This document shows, piece after piece, positions 2,298 through 10,807 of a stretch of DNA of 13,000 nt. The notes below the pieces were generated by a model. It saw only the letters and a list, made by a program, of their open reading frames with translations. It did no database searches and was not told where the DNA came from. Position 1 is the first letter of the stretch. Each line of letters starts with the position of its first letter. Source of the DNA: a virus (taxonomy: Duplodnaviria > Heunggongvirae > Uroviricota > Caudoviricetes); IMG/VR virus record IMGVR_UViG_2571042690_000014, one strand, 5' to 3'. The position numbers and the translations under genes are program-made.

Positions 2298-5200
2298 ATG
2301 GGCAAAGGAAGCAGTAAGGGGCATACCCCGCGCGAAGCGAAGGACAACCTGAAATCCACGCAATTACTGAGTGTGATCGATGCCATCAGCGAAGGGCCGA
2401 TTGAAGGTCCGGTGGATGGATTAAAAAGCGTGCTGCTGAACAGTACACCGGTGCTGGACAGTGAGGGGAATACCAACATCTCCGGTGTTACGGTGGTGTT
2501 CCGGGCAGGTGAGCAGGAGCAGACACCGCCGGAGGGATTTGAATCCTCCGGTTCCGAGACGGTGCTGGGTACGGAAGTGAAATACGACACGCCGATCACC
2601 CGCACCATCACGTCGGCAAACATCGACCGTCTGCGCTTTACCTTCGGTGTGCAGGCACTGGTGGAAACCACCTCAAAGGGGGACAGGAATCCATCGGAAG
2701 TCCGCCTGCTGGTTCAGATACAACGTAACGGTGGCTGGGTGACGGAAAAAGACATCACCATTAAGGGTAAAACCACCTCACAGTATCTGGCCTCAGTGGT
2801 GGTGGATAACCTGCCGCCGCGCCCGTTTAATATCCGGATGCGCAGGATGACGCCGGACAGCACCACAGACCAGCTGCAGAACAAAACGCTCTGGTCGTCA
2901 TACACCGAAATCATCGATGTGAAACAGTGCTACCCGAACACGGCACTGGTCGGCGTACAGGTGGACTCGGAGCAGTTCGGCAGCCAGCAGGTGAGTCGTA
3001 ATTATCATCTTCGCGGGCGCATTCTGCAGGTGCCGTCGAACTATAACCCGCAGACGCGGCAATACAGCGGTATCTGGGACGGAACGTTTAAGCCGGCATA
3101 CAGCAACAACATGGCCTGGTGTCTGTGGGATATGCTGACCCATCCGCGCTACGGCATGGGAAAACGTCTTGGTGCGGCAGATGTGGATAAATGGGCGCTG
3201 TATGTCATCGGCCAGTACTGCGACCAGTCGGTGCCGGACGGCTTTGGCGGCACGGAGCCGCGCATCACCTGTAATGCGTACCTGACCACACAGCGTAAGG
3301 CGTGGGATGTGCTCAGTGATTTCTGCTCGGCGATGCGCTGTATGCCGGTATGGAACGGGCAGACGCTGACGTTCGTGCAGGACCGGCCGTCGGATAATGT
3401 GTGGACCTATAACCGCAGTAATGTGGTGATGCCGGATGATGGCGCGCCGTTCCGCTACAGTTTCAGCGCCCTGAAGGACCGCCATAATGCCGTTGAGGTG
3501 AACTGGACTGACCCGGATAACGGCTGGGAAACGGCAACAGAGCTTGTGGAGGACACGCAGGCCATTGCCCGTTATGGTCGTAATGTCACGAAGATGGATG
3601 CCTTTGGCTGTACCAGCCGGGGGCAGGCACACCGCGCCGGGCTGTGGCTGATTAAAACGGAGCTGCTGGAAACGCAGACCGTGGACTTCAGCGTGGGCGC
3701 AGAAGGGCTTCGCCATGTACCGGGCGATGTTATTGAAATCTGCGATGATGACTATGCCGGTATCAGCACCGGTGGTCGTGTGCTGGCGGTGAGCAGCCAG
3801 ACCCGGACGCTGACGCTCGACCGTGAAATCACGCTGCCATCCTCCGGCACCACGCTGATAAGCCTGGTTGACGGAAGTGGCAATCCGGTCAGCGTGCAGG
3901 TCCAGTCCGTCACCGACGGCGTGAAGGTGAAAGTGAGCCGGGTTCCTGACGGCGTTGCAGAATACAGCGTGTGGGGGCTGAAGTTGCCGACGTTGCGCCA
4001 GCGCCTGTTCCGCTGTGTGAGTATCCGTGAGAACGACGACGGCACGTATGCCATCACCGCCGTGCAGCATGTACCGGAAAAAGAAGCCATCGTGGATAAC
4101 GGGGCGCACTTTGACGGCGACCAGAGCGGCACGGTGAATGGTGTCACGCCGCCAGCGGTGCAGCACCTGGCCGCAGAAGTCACTGCAGACAGCGGGGAAT
4201 ATCAGGTGCTGGCGCGATGGGACACACCGAAGGTGGTGAAGGGCGTGAGCTTCCTGCTCCGTCTGACCGTAACAGCGGACGACGGCAGTGAGCGGCTGGT
4301 CAGCACGGCCCGGACGACGGAAACCACATACCGCTTCAGGCAACTGGCGCTGGGGCGTTACACGCTGACGGTCCGGGCGGTAAATGCGTGGGGGCAGCAG
4401 GGCGATCCGGCATCGGTATCGTTCCGGATTGCGGCACCGGCAGCGCCTGTCACTATTGAACTGATACCAGGGTATTTTCAGATAACAGCGGTCCCGAAAC
4501 TGGCTGTATATGACCCGACGGTGCAGTTTGAGTTCTGGTTCTCGGAAAAGCGGATTATCGATATCAGGCAGGTTGAAACCAGCGCGCGTTATCTTGGTAC
4601 GGCGCTGTACTGGATAGCCGCCAGTAGCAATATTAAGCCGGGTTATGATTATTACTTTTATATCCGCAGCGTGAACACCGTTGGTAAATCGGCATTTGTG
4701 GAGGCCGTTGGTCGGGCGAGCGATGATGCGGAAGGTTATCTGAATTTTTATAAAGGGTTGATCAATAAAACGCATCTCGGCAAGGAACTGCTGGAAAACT
4801 TTGAGCTGACGGAAGATAACGCCAGCAAACTGGAGGAGTTTTCGAAAGAGTGGAAGGACGCCAACGATAAATGGAATGCCATGTGGGGCGTCAAAATTGA
4901 GCAGACCAAAGACGGCAAACATTATGTCGCGGGGCTTGGCCTCAGCATGGAGGATACGGAGGAAGGCAAACTGAGCCAGTTCCTGGTTGCCGCTAACCGT
5001 ATCGCGTTTATTGACCCGGCAAACGGGAATGAAACGCCGATGTTTGTGGCGCAGGGCAACCAGATATTCATGAACGACGTGTTCCTGAAGCGCCTGACGG
5101 CCCCCACCATTACCAGCGGCGGTAATCCTCCGGCATTTTCCCTGACACCGGACGGGCGGCTGACGGCGAAAAATGCCGATATCAGCGGTAACGTGAATGC

Positions 5201-5693
5201 GAACTCCGGGACGCTCAACAACGTCACGATTAACGAGAACTGCCGGGTTCTGGGAAAACTGTCCGCGAACCAGATTGAAGGCGATCTCGTTAAAACAGTG
5301 GGCAAAGCTTTCCCCCGTGACTCCCGGGCACCGGAGCGGTGGCCATCAGGGACCATTACCGTCAGGGTTTATGACGATCAGCCGTTTGACCGGCAAATTG
5401 TTATTCCGGCTGTGGCATTCAGTGGCGCTAAGCATGAGAGAGAGCATACTGATATTTACTCCTCATGCCGTCTGATAGTGCGGAAAAACGGTGCTGAAAT
5501 TTATAACCGTACCGCGCTGGATAATACGCTGATTTACAGTGGCGTTATTGATATGCCTGCCGGTCACGGTCACATGACGCTGGAGTTTTCGGTGTCAGCA
5601 TGGCTGGTAAATGGCTGGTATCCCACAGCAAGTATCAGCGATTTGCTGGTTGTTGTGATGAAGAAAGCCACTGCAGGCATCACGATTAGCTGA
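2298..5693 (+). CDS. J: Central tail fibre / host specificity protein J (lambda gpJ-like)
   Basis: The 1131-aa ORF is near-identical to lambda J over the N-terminal ~980 residues ([43 protein letters not shown]...). A GGAG ribosome-binding site precedes the ATG. The C-terminal ~150 aa diverge from lambda J as I remember it. Confidence 0.95.
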
Positions 5694-5760: not shown

Positions 5761-6360
5761 ATGCGTAAATTATGTGCTGTTATTCTATCCGCAGTAGTCT
5801 GGCTGGTTGCCGCTGGTACGCCAGCGAGCGCAGCAGAGCATCAGTCCACACTAAGCGCCGGGTATCTTCAGACCCATACTGATATGCCAGGCAGTGATGA
5901 CCTGAAGGGCATTAACGTGAAATACCGTTATGAATTTACGGACACGCTGGGGCTGGTGACGTCATTCAGTTATGCCAATGCCAAAGATGAGCAAAAAACG
6001 CATTACAGCGATACCCGCTGGCATGAAGATTCAGTGCGTAACCGCTGGTTCAGCATGATGGCGGGGCCATCTGTACGCGTGAATGAATGGTTCAGTGCTT
6101 ATGCGATGGCAGGTGTGGCTTACAGCCGTGTTTCGACGTTCTCCGGGGATTATCTCCGCGTAACTGACAACAAGGGGAAAACGCACGATGTGCTGACCGG
6201 AAGTGATGACGATCGCCACAGCAACACGTCTCTGGCGTGGGGAGCTGGCGTGCAGTTTAACCCGACCGAATCCGTGGCCATTGATATTGCTTATGAAGGC
6301 TCCGGCAGTGGCGACTGGCGCACTGACGGTTTCATCGTGGGTGTCGGTTATAAGTTCTGA
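5761..6360 (+). CDS. lom: Outer membrane protein Lom (Ail/Lom/OmpX family beta-barrel), phage moron
   Basis: The 199-aa ORF has a signal peptide (MRKLCAVILSAVVWLVAAGTPASA), the Lom motif KGINVKYRYE and a C-terminus DIAYEGSGSGDWRTDGFIVGVGYKF ending in an aromatic residue, matching lambda Lom. The ribosome-binding site is GAGAGG, and the position after J is as in lambda. Confidence 0.9.
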   Translation: MRKLCAVILSAVVWLVAAGTPASAAEHQSTLSAGYLQTHTDMPGSDDLKGINVKYRYEFTDTLGLVTSFSYANAKDEQKTHYSDTRWHEDSVRNRWFSMMAGPSVRVNEWFSAYAMAGVAYSRVSTFSGDYLRVTDNKGKTHDVLTGSDDDRHSNTSLAWGAGVQFNPTESVAIDIAYEGSGSGDWRTDGFIVGVGYKF

Positions 6361-6386: not shown

Positions 6387-6413
6387 AGCCCGCCGGTTCA
6401 GGCGGGCTTTTTT
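6387..6413 (+). terminator. Rho-independent terminator downstream of lom
   Basis: AGCCCGCC-GGTTCA-GGCGGGCT followed by TTTTTT. The equivalent hairpin is present after lom in lambda (recalled from memory). Confidence 0.6.
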
Positions 6414-6481
6414 GTGCACAGAAAACCCCCAGCTAGGCTGGGGGTTCCGGAAAGCTTTCAGCTTTAAGCCAGTTATTAAAA

Positions 6482-6550
6482 CCCCTTTTGATTTGTTAAA
6501 ACACCTTGCGGTCTGGCAACTGCAAGTGTCAAACAAGAAATCAAAAGGGG
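6482..6550 (+). promoter_or_regulatory. Stem-loop sequestering the tnpA ribosome-binding site (IS200-type translational control structure)
   Basis: The left arm CCCCTTTTGATTTGTT (6482-6497) is nearly complementary to AACAAGAAATCAAAAGGGG (6532-6550), which overlaps the ribosome-binding site for the ATG at 6557. Confidence 0.45.
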
Positions 6551-6556
6551 GTCCCA

Positions 6557-7015
6557 ATGGGGAACGAAAAGAGCTTAGCGCACACCCGATGGAACTGTAA
6601 ATATCACATAGTTTTTGCGCCAAAATACCGAAGACAGGTGTTCTACAGAGAGAAGCGTAGAGCAATAGGCAGTATTTTGAGAAAGCTGTGTGAGTGGAAA
6701 AGTGTACGGATTCTGGAAGCTGAATGCTGTGCAGATCATATCCATATGCTTGTGGAGATCCCGCCCAAAATGAGCGTATCCGGCTTTATGGGATATCTGA
6801 AAGGGAAAAGCAGTCTGATGCTTTACGAGCAGTTTGGTGATTTGAAATTCAAATACAGGAACAGGGAGTTCTGGTGCAGAGGGTACTACGTCGATACGGT
6901 GGGTAAGAACACGGCGAAGATACAGGATTACATAAAGCACCAGCTTGAAGAGGATAAAATGGGAGAGCAGTTATCGATTCCCTATCCGGGCAGCCCGTTT
7001 ACGGGCCGTAAGTAA
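6557..7015 (+). CDS. tnpA: IS200/IS605-family Y1 (HUH) transposase TnpA
   Basis: The 152-aa product from the Met at 6557 (MGNEKSLAHTRWNCKYHIVFAPKYRRQVF...) has the HUH motif HIHMLVEI and a downstream catalytic Tyr region (REFWCRGYYVDTVG). The ORF track's longer form (6506) begins upstream of the ribosome-binding site and is less likely. Confidence 0.85.
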   Translation: MGNEKSLAHTRWNCKYHIVFAPKYRRQVFYREKRRAIGSILRKLCEWKSVRILEAECCADHIHMLVEIPPKMSVSGFMGYLKGKSSLMLYEQFGDLKFKYRNREFWCRGYYVDTVGKNTAKIQDYIKHQLEEDKMGEQLSIPYPGSPFTGRK

Positions 7016-7135
7016 CGAAGTTGGATGCAAATGTCAGATCGTGTGCGCCTGTTAGGGCGCGGCTGGTAAGAGAGCCTTATAGGCGCATTTGAAAAACCTC
7101 CGGCTATGCCGGAGGATATTTATTGTGGAGTGGAT

Positions 7136-9514
7136 ATGGCAGCAGTAAAAATCTCAGGTGTGCTGAAAGATGGTGCGGGAAAACCAATACAGAACTGCAC
7201 TATTCAACTGAAGGCAAAGCGTAACAGCACCACGGTACTGGTGAACACGGTGGCTTCTGAAAATCCGGATGAAGCCGGACGTTACAGCATGGATGTTGAG
7301 CATGGTCAGTACAGCGTCACCCTGCTGGTTGAAGGTTTTCCGCCTTCACATGCCGGGACCATTACCGTCTATGAAGGTTCCAGACCAGGTACGCTGAATG
7401 ATTTTCTCGGTGCCATGACGGAGGATGATGTCCGACCGGAGGCACTGCGCCGCTTTGAGCAGATGGTGGAAGAAGCGGCACGCAACGCTGAAGCCGCCTC
7501 TCAGAGCGCAGCGGCGGCAAAGAAATCCGAAACTGCAGCGGCATCATCGAAGAACGCGGCGAAAACCTCAGAAACGAATGCAGCTAACAGCGCACAGGCG
7601 GCAGCGACCTCAAAGACTGCATCGGCAAACTCCGCGACAGCAGCCAAAAAATCAGAAACCAACGCGAAAAATAGCGAGACAGCCGCAAAGACGAGCGAAA
7701 CCAACGCAAAGTCCAGCCAGACGGCAGCGAAAACCAGCGAAACGAATGCCAAAGCCAGTGAAACTGCGGCAAAAAACAGCCAGGTTGCAGCAGCCCAAAG
7801 CGAGAGCGCGGCAGCCGGTTCTGCGACTTCAGCAGCTGGATCAGCAACTGCTGCGGCTAACAGCCGGAAAGCTGCGAAGACGAGTGAAACTAACGCAAAG
7901 TCCAGCCAGACGGCAGCGAAGACCAGCGAAACGAATGCCAAAGCCAGCGAAACTGCGGCGAAAAACAGTCAGGATGCAGCAGCCCAAAGCGAGAGTGCTG
8001 CAGCTGGTTCTGCAAGCGCGGCGGCTGCTTCTGCCACTGCATCAGCCAACAGTCAAAAAGCAGCAAAAACCAGTGAAACCAATGCAAAGACAAGCGAGAC
8101 TGCAGCGGCGAACTCGGCGAAAGCATCCGCTGCAAGCCAGACCGCTGCAAAAGCAAGTGAAGACGCAGCCAGAGAGTATGCAAGCCAGGCAGCAGATCCG
8201 TATAAATATGTCTTACAGCCGCTGCCTGATGTGTGGATACCGTTTAACGATTCACTGGATATGATTACGGGCTTTTCGCCATCATATAAAAAGATTGTTA
8301 TTGGTGACGACGAAATAACGATGCCTGGCGACAAGATTGTTAAGTTTAAACGTGCATCGAAAGCAACCTATATTAACAAATCTGGTGTGCTGACAGAGGC
8401 TGCCATTGATGAGCCACGATTTGAACGTGATGGCCTGCTTATTGAGGGGCAAAGAACTAATCTTCTGCTTAATTCAACAAATCCATCTAAATGGAATAAG
8501 TCAGGCAATCTGGAACTCACAGAAATATCCACGGATTCTTTTAATTTTACTTATGGGAGATTTACTGTAAAAGATACTCTTATTGGTCAGACAAGTGCTA
8601 TTAATATCGTAACGATTTCTGGCAGTAAAGGGTTTGATGTCACAGGTGATGAAAAATATGTGACCATTTCATGCCGTGTAAGAAGTGATGTTGAAAATAT
8701 AAGGTGTCGTTTAAGATTTGAACACCATGATGGTTATACTTACACTTTTTTGGGAGATGCTTACCTCAATTTATCAACACTTGTAATTGATAAAACTGGT
8801 ACTGCTGCAGACCGTATTATTGCAAAGGCTGTAAAAGATGAGGTTACTGGTTGGATTTTCTATCAGGCTACAATTAATGCACTAGATACAGAGAGCATGA
8901 TTGGTGCGATGGTTCAATACGCTCCTGTAAAAGGTTCAGGTACAGCATCTGGAGACTATCTGGATATCGCAACTCCACAAGTGGAAGGTGGATCAAGTGC
9001 TTCGTCATTTATTGTAACTGATATAACTGCAAGCACTCGCGCAAGCGATATGGTGACAGTCCCAATCAAGAATAACCTTTATAATCTTCCTTTTACGGTT
9101 CTTTGTGAGGTACATAAGAACTGGTATAAAACGCCAAATGCAGCACCGCGTGTTTTTGATACCGGCGGTCATCAAACCGGAGCGGCTATTATTCTTGGCT
9201 TCGGTCGTTCAACAGATTACGACGGATTTCCTTATTGTGATATAGGTTTGGCTAACAGACGGGTAAACGAAAACGCATCGCTTGAAAAAATGGTTATGGG
9301 GATGCGTGTAAAGTCAGATCAGTCTACGTGCTCAGTAAGTAACGGGCGTATATCCAGCGAAAAGAAAGCCACATGGTCCTATATTCAGAACTCCGCAATT
9401 ATCCGTATTGGAGGCCAGACTACAGCCGGGTTGCGTCATTTATTTGGTCATGTCAGGAATTTCAGAATATGGCACAAGGCATTGACTGATGCTCAGATGG
9501 GGGAGTCAATCTAA
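7136..9514 (+). CDS. stf: Side tail fibre protein Stf (lambda Stf-like N-terminus, divergent distal domain)
   Basis: From the ATG at 7136, MAAVKISGVLKDGAGKPIQNCTIQLKAKRNSTTVLVNTVASENPDEAGRYSMDVEHGQYSV... matches the lambda Stf N-terminus. It is followed by Ala/Ser/Thr-rich KTSETNAK-type repeats and an AT-richer C-terminal region that does not match lambda. The ribosome-binding site is GGAG at 7127-7130; the ORF track start at 7106 lies inside the IS200 right end and is unlikely. Confidence 0.85.
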   Translation: MAAVKISGVLKDGAGKPIQNCTIQLKAKRNSTTVLVNTVASENPDEAGRYSMDVEHGQYSVTLLVEGFPPSHAGTITVYEGSRPGTLNDFLGAMTEDDVRPEALRRFEQMVEEAARNAEAASQSAAAAKKSETAAASSKNAAKTSETNAANSAQAAATSKTASANSATAAKKSETNAKNSETAAKTSETNAKSSQTAAKTSETNAKASETAAKNSQVAAAQSESAAAGSATSAAGSATAAANSRKAAKTSETNAKSSQTAAKTSETNAKASETAAKNSQDAAAQSESAAAGSASAAAASATASANSQKAAKTSETNAKTSETAAANSAKASAASQTAAKASEDAAREYASQAADPYKYVLQPLPDVWIPFNDSLDMITGFSPSYKKIVIGDDEITMPGDKIVKFKRASKATYINKSGVLTEAAIDEPRFERDGLLIEGQRTNLLLNSTNPSKWNKSGNLELTEISTDSFNFTYGRFTVKDTLIGQTSAINIVTISGSKGFDVTGDEKYVTISCRVRSDVENIRCRLRFEHHDGYTYTFLGDAYLNLSTLVIDKTGTAADRIIAKAVKDEVTGWIFYQATINALDTESMIGAMVQYAPVKGSGTASGDYLDIATPQVEGGSSASSFIVTDITASTRASDMVTVPIKNNLYNLPFTVLCEVHKNWYKTPNAAPRVFDTGGHQTGAAIILGFGRSTDYDGFPYCDIGLANRRVNENASLEKMVMGMRVKSDQSTCSVSNGRISSEKKATWSYIQNSAIIRIGGQTTAGLRHLFGHVRNFRIWHKALTDAQMGESI
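7688..8065 (+). repeat. Tandem duplication of a 189-bp (63-codon) unit inside stf
   Basis: AAGACGAGCGAAACCAACGCAAAGTCCAGCCAGACGGCAGCGAAAACCAGCGAAACGAATGCCAAAGCCAGTGAAACTGCGGC... from 7688 recurs from 7877 with only a few substitutions. It encodes two copies of TSETNAKSSQTAAKTSETNAKASETAAKNSQ.AAAQSESAAAGSA. Confidence 0.75.
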
Positions 9515-9795
9515 TGAAAGATTTAACACTCAAATTTGCAGACAGGGCCGACTTTTCGGCCTTTATGGATAGCATTGGCTATTATGATGACGAGTCGATG
9601 CAGGATGATATTCTTATTGACGTGATAGGTAACGTGTACAAAGAAACCGGAGAACTGACTGAAGATGGCGAACCGGTATGTGTTAAGGAAGATGGATATT
9701 ATGTAAACGTGCGCATCATTAATGATGCAAAAAAATCGTCAATATTCGATGAATACGCGGTTGTAGTTGAACATCAACTTCGTGGCTGGATGTGA
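9514..9795 (+). CDS. Hypothetical small acidic protein (93 aa), translationally coupled to stf
   Basis: The start overlaps the stf stop (TAATG) and is preceded by a GGGGGAG ribosome-binding site. The product is rich in Asp/Glu (MKDLTLKFADRADFSAFMDSIGYYDDESMQDDILIDV...) with no recognisable motif, and the sequence is AT-rich like the distal part of stf. Confidence 0.5.
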   Translation: MKDLTLKFADRADFSAFMDSIGYYDDESMQDDILIDVIGNVYKETGELTEDGEPVCVKEDGYYVNVRIINDAKKSSIFDEYAVVVEHQLRGWM

Positions 9796-9804
9796 GGGAG
9801 ACAA

Positions 9805-10509
9805 ATGGCTACATCGACAGTAATTCCAGGAGACATCACCACGTTAAAGGGAGATGTCAGTAAAGCCAAGGAAGATATTTCCTCAATTAACGGAAAAGTA
9901 TCAACGCTTCAGGCTGATATGACCAGTGCAAAGCAGGATATCAGCACCAGATACACAAAAACTGAAGTTGATAATAAGCTGAAAAACAAACTGGAAGTGA
10001 ACGCTCTGGAAAGCGGTCGTTATGGTGGAGATTTTTACCCGTTGACTGGCCGTGAAGCGTTTTATTTGTGGGGATTGGGCACGACTACAGCGGCGGCAAA
10101 CCTTTATCTTAATCCTGACCCCGCAATTTCGTCTGTGCTGCGGTCAACATCGTCTATCCGCTATAAACATTCAGTAGAGACAATAGATTCAGAGCACGCC
10201 GATCTCATTTTCAGGATGCGCCCTGTGTGGTACAGGTCACAATGCGAAAATGACAGGCGTGACTGGGGATTCTACGGATTGATTGCCGAGGAAGTAGGAG
10301 AAATTGCCCCTCAGTTTGTACACTGGCGACCAGCTAACGAAGATGATGCACCGGAAGCTATTTCCAGCAATGGCCTTGTTGCCGAAGGTGTAATGTACGA
10401 ACGTCTGGTTGTTCCACTGATTCACCATATCCAGAAGCTGACTGAAAGAGTTGATGAACTTGAGTCAGAATTAAAGTTGTTATCCGTTTCCCGAAGCGAT
10501 ATCGGATAA
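9805..10509 (+). CDS. Fibre-like coiled-coil protein with C-terminal intramolecular-chaperone (peptidase S74-like) domain
   Basis: It has a GAGGGAG ribosome-binding site. The N-terminus carries repeated coiled-coil-like units (GDVSKAKEDISSINGKVSTLQADMTSAKQDISTRYTKTEVDNKLKNKLE). The C-terminus fits the S74 / chaperone-of-endosialidase pattern: SIRYK (S-x-R-x-K), then LIFRMRPVWYRS, WGFYGLIAEEVGEIAPQFV and VMYERLVVPLIHHIQKLTERVDELESEL. The assignment is from memory of the family signature, not a search. Confidence 0.55.
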   Translation: MATSTVIPGDITTLKGDVSKAKEDISSINGKVSTLQADMTSAKQDISTRYTKTEVDNKLKNKLEVNALESGRYGGDFYPLTGREAFYLWGLGTTTAAANLYLNPDPAISSVLRSTSSIRYKHSVETIDSEHADLIFRMRPVWYRSQCENDRRDWGFYGLIAEEVGEIAPQFVHWRPANEDDAPEAISSNGLVAEGVMYERLVVPLIHHIQKLTERVDELESELKLLSVSRSDIG

Positions 10510-10519
10510 AGGAGGAGTA

Positions 10520-10807
10520 ATGGATATAAGCCCCTTACTTCATGCACTTTGTGCTGTGGCTGCGCAAACACTGGTTGGTCTTTTTACCGGAAACTGGGCT
10601 TACGGAGCGATAGCCGGTTGTACGTTCTTCATTGCGCGTGAACACACCCAGGCAGAATATCGCTGGATCGAAATGTTCGGGCATGGCAAGCGAATGAATA
10701 TGCCGTGGTGGGGCGGTTTTGATCCGCGCGCGTGGGATGTGACAAGCCTGATGGATTTTGCTGTGCCGGTGGTGGCGTGTCTGCTGATCTGGATGTTGAT
10801 CCGTTAA
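10520..10807 (+). CDS. Hypothetical small membrane protein (95 aa)
   Basis: It has a strong GGAGGAG ribosome-binding site 3 nt after the preceding stop. There are hydrophobic segments at both ends (LLHALCAVAAQTLVGLFTG, AIAGCTFFIA, FAVPVVACLLIWMLI). GC content is higher than in the two genes before it. Confidence 0.5.
   Translation: MDISPLLHALCAVAAQTLVGLFTGNWAYGAIAGCTFFIAREHTQAEYRWIEMFGHGKRMNMPWWGGFDPRAWDVTSLMDFAVPVVACLLIWMLIR

Follow-up and report, generated by a model that had tools for sequence, protein, structure and literature searches.

What is the role of a protein of only 234 residues that carries a Peptidase_S74 domain and is encoded, as a gene of its own, downstream of a side tail fibre gene? 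The protein considered here, hereafter ORF234, lies in a stretch of 13,000 nucleotides (the window) of IMG/VR virus record IMGVR_UViG_2571042690_000014. An earlier note, made from the letters alone, had described this plus-strand reading frame together with several sequence motifs, and translation of the ORF agrees with that description in both length and motifs. The note had left two readings side by side, a miniature separate fibre or tip, or a chaperone domain acting in trans on the upstream side tail fibre protein, Stf. Comparison with related phages favours the first of these and disfavours the second, and the evidence on each is given below with the other explanations that the locus invites.

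The locus and its setting

The DNA is from E. coli ST131, where the window forms the right end of a lambda-like prophage; about 1.5 kb around ORF234 match the chromosomes of ST131 strains (EC958 and JJ1886, for instance) with 100% identity. The tail genes are followed by gpJ (2298-5693), lom (5761-6360), an IS200 transposase gene, stf, orf93, ORF234, orf95 and the chromosomal gene zinT (Table 1). The IS200 element has the lom terminator on one side and the ribosome-binding site of stf on the other, and the first 10 codons of the 802-codon Stf ORF fall in the terminal hairpin of the element. The start assigned by PGAP is the ATG at 7136, which falls at residue 2 in an alignment with the lambda Stf chain of 9e7m, and the length of 802 residues once given to Stf has to be corrected to 792; the accompanying statement that Stf has no S74 domain was borne out, the Pfam search of this protein giving no S74 match. 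A scan for promoters and terminators returned no more sites than were found in shuffled sequence. The cassette formed by stf, orf93 and the S74 gene is not treated in a study of lambda-prophage recombinants (PMC3945230).

Table 1. Coordinates of the fibre genes in the window and of the parts of ORF234
Feature	Position	Strand	Basis or remark
Stf, proximal side tail fibre, 792 residues	7136..9514	+	Pfam phage_tail_N, NCBIfam NF048003, homologues
orf93, conserved small alpha/beta protein of the fibre cassette	9514..9795	+	ATG overlaps the Stf stop codon
ORF234, putative distal S74-bearing subunit, precursor form	9805..10509	+	RefSeq WP_000235978.1
ORF234 N-terminal motif MATSTVIPGDITTLK, residues 1-15, proposed docking element	9805..9849	+	common to all cassette distal proteins
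Six exact heptads, residues 10-51, predicted trimeric coiled-coil stalk	9832..9957	+	heptad listing, AF2 helix
Pre-cleavage segment, residues 61-115	9985..10149	+	last ~30 residues homologous to long-fibre stalk
Intramolecular chaperone / Peptidase_S74 domain, residues 116-234	10150..10506	+	Pfam, AF2 model, Foldseek, conservation
S74 domain C-terminal helix, residues 198-233	10396-10503	+	AF2 model
orf95, small predicted membrane protein, last gene of the cassette region	10520..10807	+	phrog_1443 match, hydrophobic sequence

An S74 domain with a conserved Ser-Lys pair

That ORF234 carries an S74-like domain had been proposed from motifs, and the profile search upheld it: PF13884 (Peptidase_S74) matched residues 116-172, corresponding to profile positions 1-57 of 58, with 27.3 bits against a gathering cut-off of 22 (E = 4.4e-6). 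An AlphaFold2 model of the monomer, built with 48 homologues, has a pLDDT of about 80-90 over residues 121-233, where strands are followed by the long C-terminal helix. The best PDB matches of this model in Foldseek were the intramolecular chaperone domain of MyRF (MyRF ICA, 7dc3; E = 5e-6), endoNF (3gw6) and the GA-1 neck appendage (3gud), and its best structural match in BFVD was Jahat_MG145 (E = 6e-22); by sequence, the closest PDB relative was the C-terminus of DT57C LtfA (8hqz_d, E = 5.5e-7). The protein is named 'tail fiber domain-containing protein' in RefSeq (WP_000235978.1), and some depositors have given the exact sequence the name 'chaperone of endosialidase'.

A conserved Ser/Lys dyad, as had been anticipated, is present on alignment. 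S116 (codon 10150-10152) and K121 (codon 10165-10167) are invariant in 21 homologues and in the seven cassette homologues described below; in a broader alignment of 48 sequences all have K121 and at least 90% have S116. The nucleophile had at first been placed on the serine of SIRYK (S117), which is one residue off, as it is S116, the first serine of SSIRYK, that gives the i/i+5 spacing reported for the catalytic pairs of endoNF (S911/K916) and MyRF (S587/K592) (PMC8326128). Because the spacing from S116 to K121 matches that of endoNF and MyRF, and the chain is cut immediately before the serine in those proteins (PMC8326128), cleavage of ORF234 is predicted to occur between T115 and S116, with S116 as the nucleophile and K121 as the general base. 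The likeness to endoNF (3gw6) and MyRF ICA (7dc3) thus extends to the fold, the Ser-Lys spacing and the C-terminal trimerising helix; the domains of endoNF and MyRF, however, mature large enzymes or a transcription factor, whereas the client of the ORF234 domain would be a coiled-coil stub of about 115 residues.

The part of ORF234 that precedes the cleavage site

The N-terminal portion had been described as a repeat-containing coiled coil of about 100 residues. This holds for residues 10-51 and not for the remainder, as about 60 non-helical residues follow. The coiled-coil part consists of six exact heptads, each hydrophobic at positions 2 and 5, coincides with a helix in the AlphaFold2 model (residues 11-47), and varies among homologues by whole heptads. 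Tandem Repeats Finder detected no DNA-level repeat beneath the heptads, so that the repetition exists at the protein level only. The P22 tail needle gp26 was also matched, though weakly. The gene has its own Shine-Dalgarno-like sequence, GGGAG, at 9796-9800.

Between the coiled coil and S116 there are only about 55-60 non-helical residues, and residues 61-115 have a pLDDT below 50 in the monomer model. An exhaustive search of representative sequences gave 3633 homologues, and for most of these the alignment begins at ORF234 residues 84-93; hence the last 30 or so residues before the cut are part of the conserved module, and they are likely to form a beta-helical stalk on which the chaperone domain acts. 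The S74 domain is C-terminal, and residues 86-115 just ahead of it, for which the monomer pLDDT is likewise low (below 50), share homology with the segments that precede the cleavage site in long fibres; R113 is nearly invariant among ORF234 homologues. The pre-cleavage segment is presumed to be both the client of the chaperone domain and the tip of the mature protein. Pfam and NCBIfam searches detected no receptor-binding domain before the cleavage site, for which reason ORF234 is called here a minimal variant, and a cut at T115/S116 in a protein of this anatomy leads to a predicted mature product of only 115 residues.

Among divergent short homologues the N-terminal motif has the highest mean identity of any region (0.77), followed by the chaperone core (0.71), with intermediate values for the pre-cleavage segment (0.58-0.60). 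The latter is therefore not hypervariable, which is unusual for a receptor-binding tip.

A three-gene fibre cassette shared by different phage groups

The gene order of the window, a fibre protein of about 690-800 residues followed by a protein of about 92 residues and then by an S74 protein, is found unchanged in seven other phages: the lambda-like phages IdasGreatGrand, 2G7b and PhiR47_1, the T1-like Drexlerviridae phage KarlJaspers, the 9g-like Nonagvirus phages ESCO3 and JenP2, and the T5-like phage IrisVonRoten. The S74 domain is C-terminal in all six of the other cassette distal proteins (6/6). Seven of seven distal proteins, from different phage groups, share an N-terminal motif, MxTxTxIPxDIxxL, in which M1, T3, T5, I7, P8, D10, I11 and L14 are invariant, as well as the Ser/Lys pair; what lies between these two elements is highly variable, with mature parts of 109 to 463 residues. 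The DNA of the window is nearly identical to that of ESCO3 and 2G7b over the 3' end of stf, orf93 and the first 16-20 or so codons of the distal gene, after which it diverges abruptly. A mosaic joint placed just past the motif is what one would expect if the tip is exchangeable and the docking end is kept fixed.

The proximal protein of the window, Stf, is composed of a lambda-type N-terminal anchor, an alanine-rich repeat shaft and a C-terminal globular, lectin-like region of about 430 residues. Its N-terminus matches Pfam phage_tail_N (E = 2.6e-67) and the lambda tail fibre chain 9e7m, and NCBIfam NF048003 places a GTA head-spike-fibre domain at about residues 435-636 of 792 (58.6 bits; cut-off 36).

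The small S74 protein is not as rare as had been implied: its exact sequence occurs on at least 1000 contigs, full-length homologues are found in 47 phage records, and the best 150 matches include 142 new representative proteins, of which 21 (about 15%) have fewer than 300 residues. Short forms of 221-269 residues with the same architecture are encoded in dozens of virulent Drexlerviridae genomes, with 55-61% identity to ORF234. The products of this kind that are 225-231 residues long, such as KarlJaspers gp35 and those of PeterMerian and Jahat_MG145, agree with ORF234 in length class, domain order and cassette position; they belong, however, to virulent T1-like phages and not to a lambda-like prophage, and their coiled coils differ by whole heptads. 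No experimental characterisation of these short Drexlerviridae proteins was found in the literature.

The same module is also found fused in cis. In other E. coli prophages it closes a one-piece Stf that ends in an S74 domain, examples being P0067, of 958 residues, and P0065, of 735; the matching part of ORF234 is residues 50-234, with 57% identity. In P0067 the similarity covers the C-terminal 185 residues, the last 30 or so being almost identical, and the N-terminal anchor is 81% identical to that of the window Stf. The one-piece proteins unite anchor, shaft, tip and chaperone domain in one chain and, unlike the three-gene arrangement, have no lectin-like domain, orf93 or N-terminal docking motif. 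A comparable pair exists within one genus of Drexlerviridae, where JakobBernoulli has a single fibre of 741 residues in the place of the three-gene cassette of KarlJaspers; according to the BASEL paper, this fibre comprises a coiled coil, a T5-like tip and a chaperone domain.

A proposed distal subunit of a two-part side tail fibre

Taken with the domain analysis, these comparisons suggest that the side tail fibre is probably made of two parts, with ORF234 as the distal subunit, encoded by a gene of its own: a trimeric stub or tip that folds by means of its own chaperone domain and is docked on Stf. Of the two readings first offered for the gene it is the separate fibre or tip that gains from the comparison, both by the N-terminal motif and gene position that ORF234 has in common with longer distal proteins such as IrisVonRoten Gp24, and by the fusion of its module to the ends of one-piece Stf proteins.

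In the proposed sequence of events, ORF234 would be made as a 234-residue precursor and would trimerise through the chaperone domain, whose long C-terminal helix may form a trimeric coiled coil. The chaperone domain would then serve as a template on which the segment upstream of it (about residues 86-115) and the N-terminal coiled coil of six heptads fold, after which S116 and K121 would cut the chain at T115|S116 and the chaperone domain, of about 13 kDa, would be discarded. The mature chains of 115 residues are expected to leave a stub about 8-10 nm long, which would dock by its N-terminal motif (MATSTVIPGDI...) on the distal end of Stf, possibly aided by orf93. So short a stub leaves hardly any space for a receptor-binding domain, in contrast to the longer relatives of ORF234, and its role may therefore be that of a minimal tip or cap; glycans would probably be bound for the most part by the lectin-like C-terminal domain of Stf. 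All of these steps are drawn from homology and context, the docking on Stf from homology and gene order alone.

Two-part or branched lateral fibres with a self-cleaving domain on the distal protein are already established, on genetic grounds for LtfA/LtfB of DT57C and by modelling for IrisVonRoten. In IrisVonRoten (Bas32), an AlphaFold-Multimer model has the distal Gp24 attached to the proximal Gp22, which has a galectin-like C-terminal domain (Humolli et al. 2025, PLoS Biol, PMC11990801). The genes for Gp22, Gp23 and Gp24 stand in the order of the window cassette, Gp23 being the orf93 homologue; Gp22 is 54% identical to Stf, the lectin-like C-terminal region included, and Gp24, like ORF234, starts with the docking motif (MVTKTVIPTDITKLK) and ends in an S74 domain with the Ser-Lys pair. 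The two distal proteins differ in what lies between: Gp24 has 574 residues, two predicted receptor-binding domains and about 463 mature residues, whereas ORF234 retains about 115, with no recognisable receptor-binding domain.

The experimental precedent for the attachment of a distal fibre protein with a pfam13884 domain through a proximal one comes from LtfA and LtfB of phages DT57C and DT571/2 (PMC4728585, PMC10713586). The arrangement is that of a two-protein fibre, as is proposed here, and it is the C-terminus of LtfA (8hqz_d) that ORF234 matches. In DT57C, however, S74 is present on both subunits and receptor binding by LtfB is proven, whereas the proximal Stf of the window is without S74; the docking motif is also a different one, and the window has an additional 93-residue gene between the two fibre genes. 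For the minimal form of about 230 residues, no description of its role was found in the literature.

The finding overturns nothing in the current understanding of these fibres. It indicates that the side tail fibres of lambda-like prophages are built of exchangeable parts that are common to virulent T1-, 9g- and T5-like phages, and the smallest unit able to attach to a fibre appears to consist of a fixed docking peptide followed by a self-cleaving folding domain, knowledge of use for engineering phage host range. The minimal form also poses the question of whether a tip that has no receptor-binding domain serves as a cap, as a very small adhesin or as an assembly aid.

Alternative explanations

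The shortness of ORF234 might be a sign of decay. It could be argued that the gene is what remains of a distal fibre gene after loss of its receptor-binding middle, a functionless stub kept by linkage only, a reading that we regard as unlikely. ORF234 is indeed the shortest form, the other members of the series having 110-350 more residues before the cleavage site, but the short architecture (221-269 residues) is kept, at about 57-61% identity, in the dozens of virulent Drexlerviridae genomes mentioned above. Decay does occur among these genes, as the distal gene of PhiR47_1 is a version truncated inside the chaperone domain; in ORF234 and its homologues, nevertheless, the catalytic pair and the core are conserved, including K121 in all 48 aligned sequences. 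Likewise, the gene sits in a prophage and an IS200 lies just upstream of its operon, yet the pairwise dN/dS between ORF234 and its IdasGreatGrand homologue (0.26 overall, 0.31 in the mature part and 0.19 in the chaperone domain) indicates that the gene is under purifying selection, to judge from this comparison.

The next explanation, that of a trans-acting assembly factor, is the second of the readings in the earlier note. ORF234 would bind nascent Stf, or Stf together with orf93, its trimerising domain would aid assembly, and it would then be removed. Phage 21 bears directly on this proposal: it has an Stf homologue (49% identity over the shaft and the lectin-like part) and an orf93 homologue, followed by an orf95 homologue, and no S74 gene, which makes the S74 gene an optional add-on to the Stf-orf93 pair and argues against this proposal. 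The location of ORF234 directly downstream of the fibre gene recalls that of lambda tfa; a Tfa-type chaperone (lambda Tfa or Mu gpU) was nevertheless rejected as an identity for the cassette proteins, since neither ORF234 nor orf93 nor orf95 had a Tfa or Caudo_TAP match in Pfam or NCBIfam. Existing names also point to a chaperone, as BASEL records call the Drexlerviridae homologues 'putative lateral tail fiber chaperone' and other records use 'chaperone of endosialidase', but the known mechanism of the domain is intramolecular: within a trimer, the chain to be cut passes through the chaperone domain of an adjacent subunit (PMC8326128). Furthermore, while the mature part is tiny and lacks a recognisable receptor-binding domain, ORF234 carries its own homologous pre-cleavage segment, and its N-terminal motif is present also in bona fide long distal fibres. 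A trans-acting factor is thus judged improbable. A search of the literature found no virion proteomics of 'chaperone of endosialidase' proteins and nothing relevant on trans-complementation by an S74 domain.

It might also be speculated, as a rather remote variant, that ORF234 is a detachable clamp for a fibre without an S74 domain: its motif would dock on nascent Stf, its chaperone domain would trimerise and thereby align the three C-terminal lectin domains, and self-cleavage would then leave behind at most a small cap.

The remaining explanation, that mutation split a formerly continuous Stf gene and left ORF234 as its C-terminal piece, hence an annotation artefact or pseudogene, might be read from its alignment to positions 1147-1384 of the 1385-position profile phrog_3299 and from the one-piece Stf proteins that end in the same module, but was rejected as very improbable, because Stf is full length to its last residues when compared with IrisVonRoten Gp22 and phage 21 Stf, a separate conserved gene, orf93, lies in between, and ORF234 has its own ribosome-binding site, an ATG and a conserved N-terminus, with the motif starting from residue 1 in all cassette homologues.

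The small genes orf93 and orf95

A fusion of orf93 with ORF234 by translational read-through was also considered, the two genes being in the same frame (TGA plus three codons apart), and was discarded: the shared frame follows from the shared junction sequence, and it fails in KarlJaspers if translation of the distal gene begins at the conserved MAT motif. None of ORF234, orf93 and orf95 is covered by an NCBIfam family, and nothing useful was obtained from work on the fold of orf93. Homologues of orf93 are found in 186 phage records, among them rV5-like phages, always adjoining a lateral or side tail fibre gene, and its product may be a connector or an assembly factor. The orf95 homologue of phage 21 lies directly 3' of the orf93 homologue and is annotated as 'putative membrane protein, 2 TMDs'.

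A probable exchange at the side tail fibre cassette

Over 465 bp, positions 9400-9864 of the window share ~93% DNA identity with Escherichia phage vB_EcoS_ESCO3 (4001-4465), and the matching stretch runs from the 3' end of the proximal side tail fibre gene stf through orf93 into the opening codons of the distal gene, which encodes the S74-bearing protein ORF234. One partner of the match is a temperate lambda-like prophage and the other a virulent Nonagvirus; this level of identity suggests that temperate and virulent phages have exchanged DNA at the stf/orf93/distal-gene locus in the recent past. A 2014 survey of E. coli phages reported that no recent temperate-virulent exchanges were found (PMC3945230).

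In 186 phage records, with a range that covers lambda-like, T1-like, Dhillonvirus, 9g-like, T5-like and rV5-like phages, a homologue of orf93 adjoins a gene for a lateral or side tail fibre; phage 21, which has no S74 gene, also keeps orf93. The orf93 product matched no family, and structural comparison gave no informative match. At 9793-9807, orf93 and ORF234 share a reading frame, being separated only by the TGA and three codons. The spacing is identical in IdasGreatGrand, ESCO3, 2G7b, PhiR47_1, JenP2 and IrisVonRoten, and differs in KarlJaspers if the distal gene of that phage starts at the conserved N-terminal MAT motif. The same-frame arrangement is probably just a common junction sequence; a less likely alternative is that read-through of the TGA joins orf93 to ORF234.

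The distal S74 protein of PhiR47_1, a phage derived from an ECOR prophage, ends within the chaperone domain (3501-4385 of that phage) and has 294 residues versus 345 in 2G7b; this member of the cassette seems to be decaying there.

Features of the stf region and its surroundings (window positions)
Feature	Position	Description
IS200	~6418-7126	~709 bp; tnpA at 6557-7015 (PGAP)
IS200 end hairpin	7097-7115	includes ATG 7106
Stf residues ~435-636 (from ATG 7136)	8438-9043	NCBIfam NF048003
orf93	9514-9795	~92-residue conserved alpha/beta protein
orf95	10520-10807	small hydrophobic protein, phrog_1443

The Stf fibre and flanking sequences

In its globular C-terminal part, Stf matches NF048003, the gene-transfer-agent 'phage head spike fiber domain', with 58.6 bits against the NCBIfam cut-off of 36, a profile match that links the lectin-like region of lambdoid side fibres to the head spikes of these agents. 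Upstream, IS200 is inserted exactly between the terminator hairpin of lom (6387-6408) and the stf ribosome-binding site, an interval that in the IS-free relative IdasGreatGrand consists only of a spacer of ~65 nt. The end hairpin of the element holds ATG 7106, from which the stf frame was read as 802 codons.

Many lambdoid phages keep orf95 where the fibre region ends, with or without the S74 gene, and the homologue in phage 21 carries the annotation of a membrane protein that has two transmembrane segments; orf95 may serve in lysogenic conversion or exclusion. An antisense open frame of 674 codons lies inside the gpJ gene (2898-4922, minus strand); most likely it is no gene and arises from codon composition.
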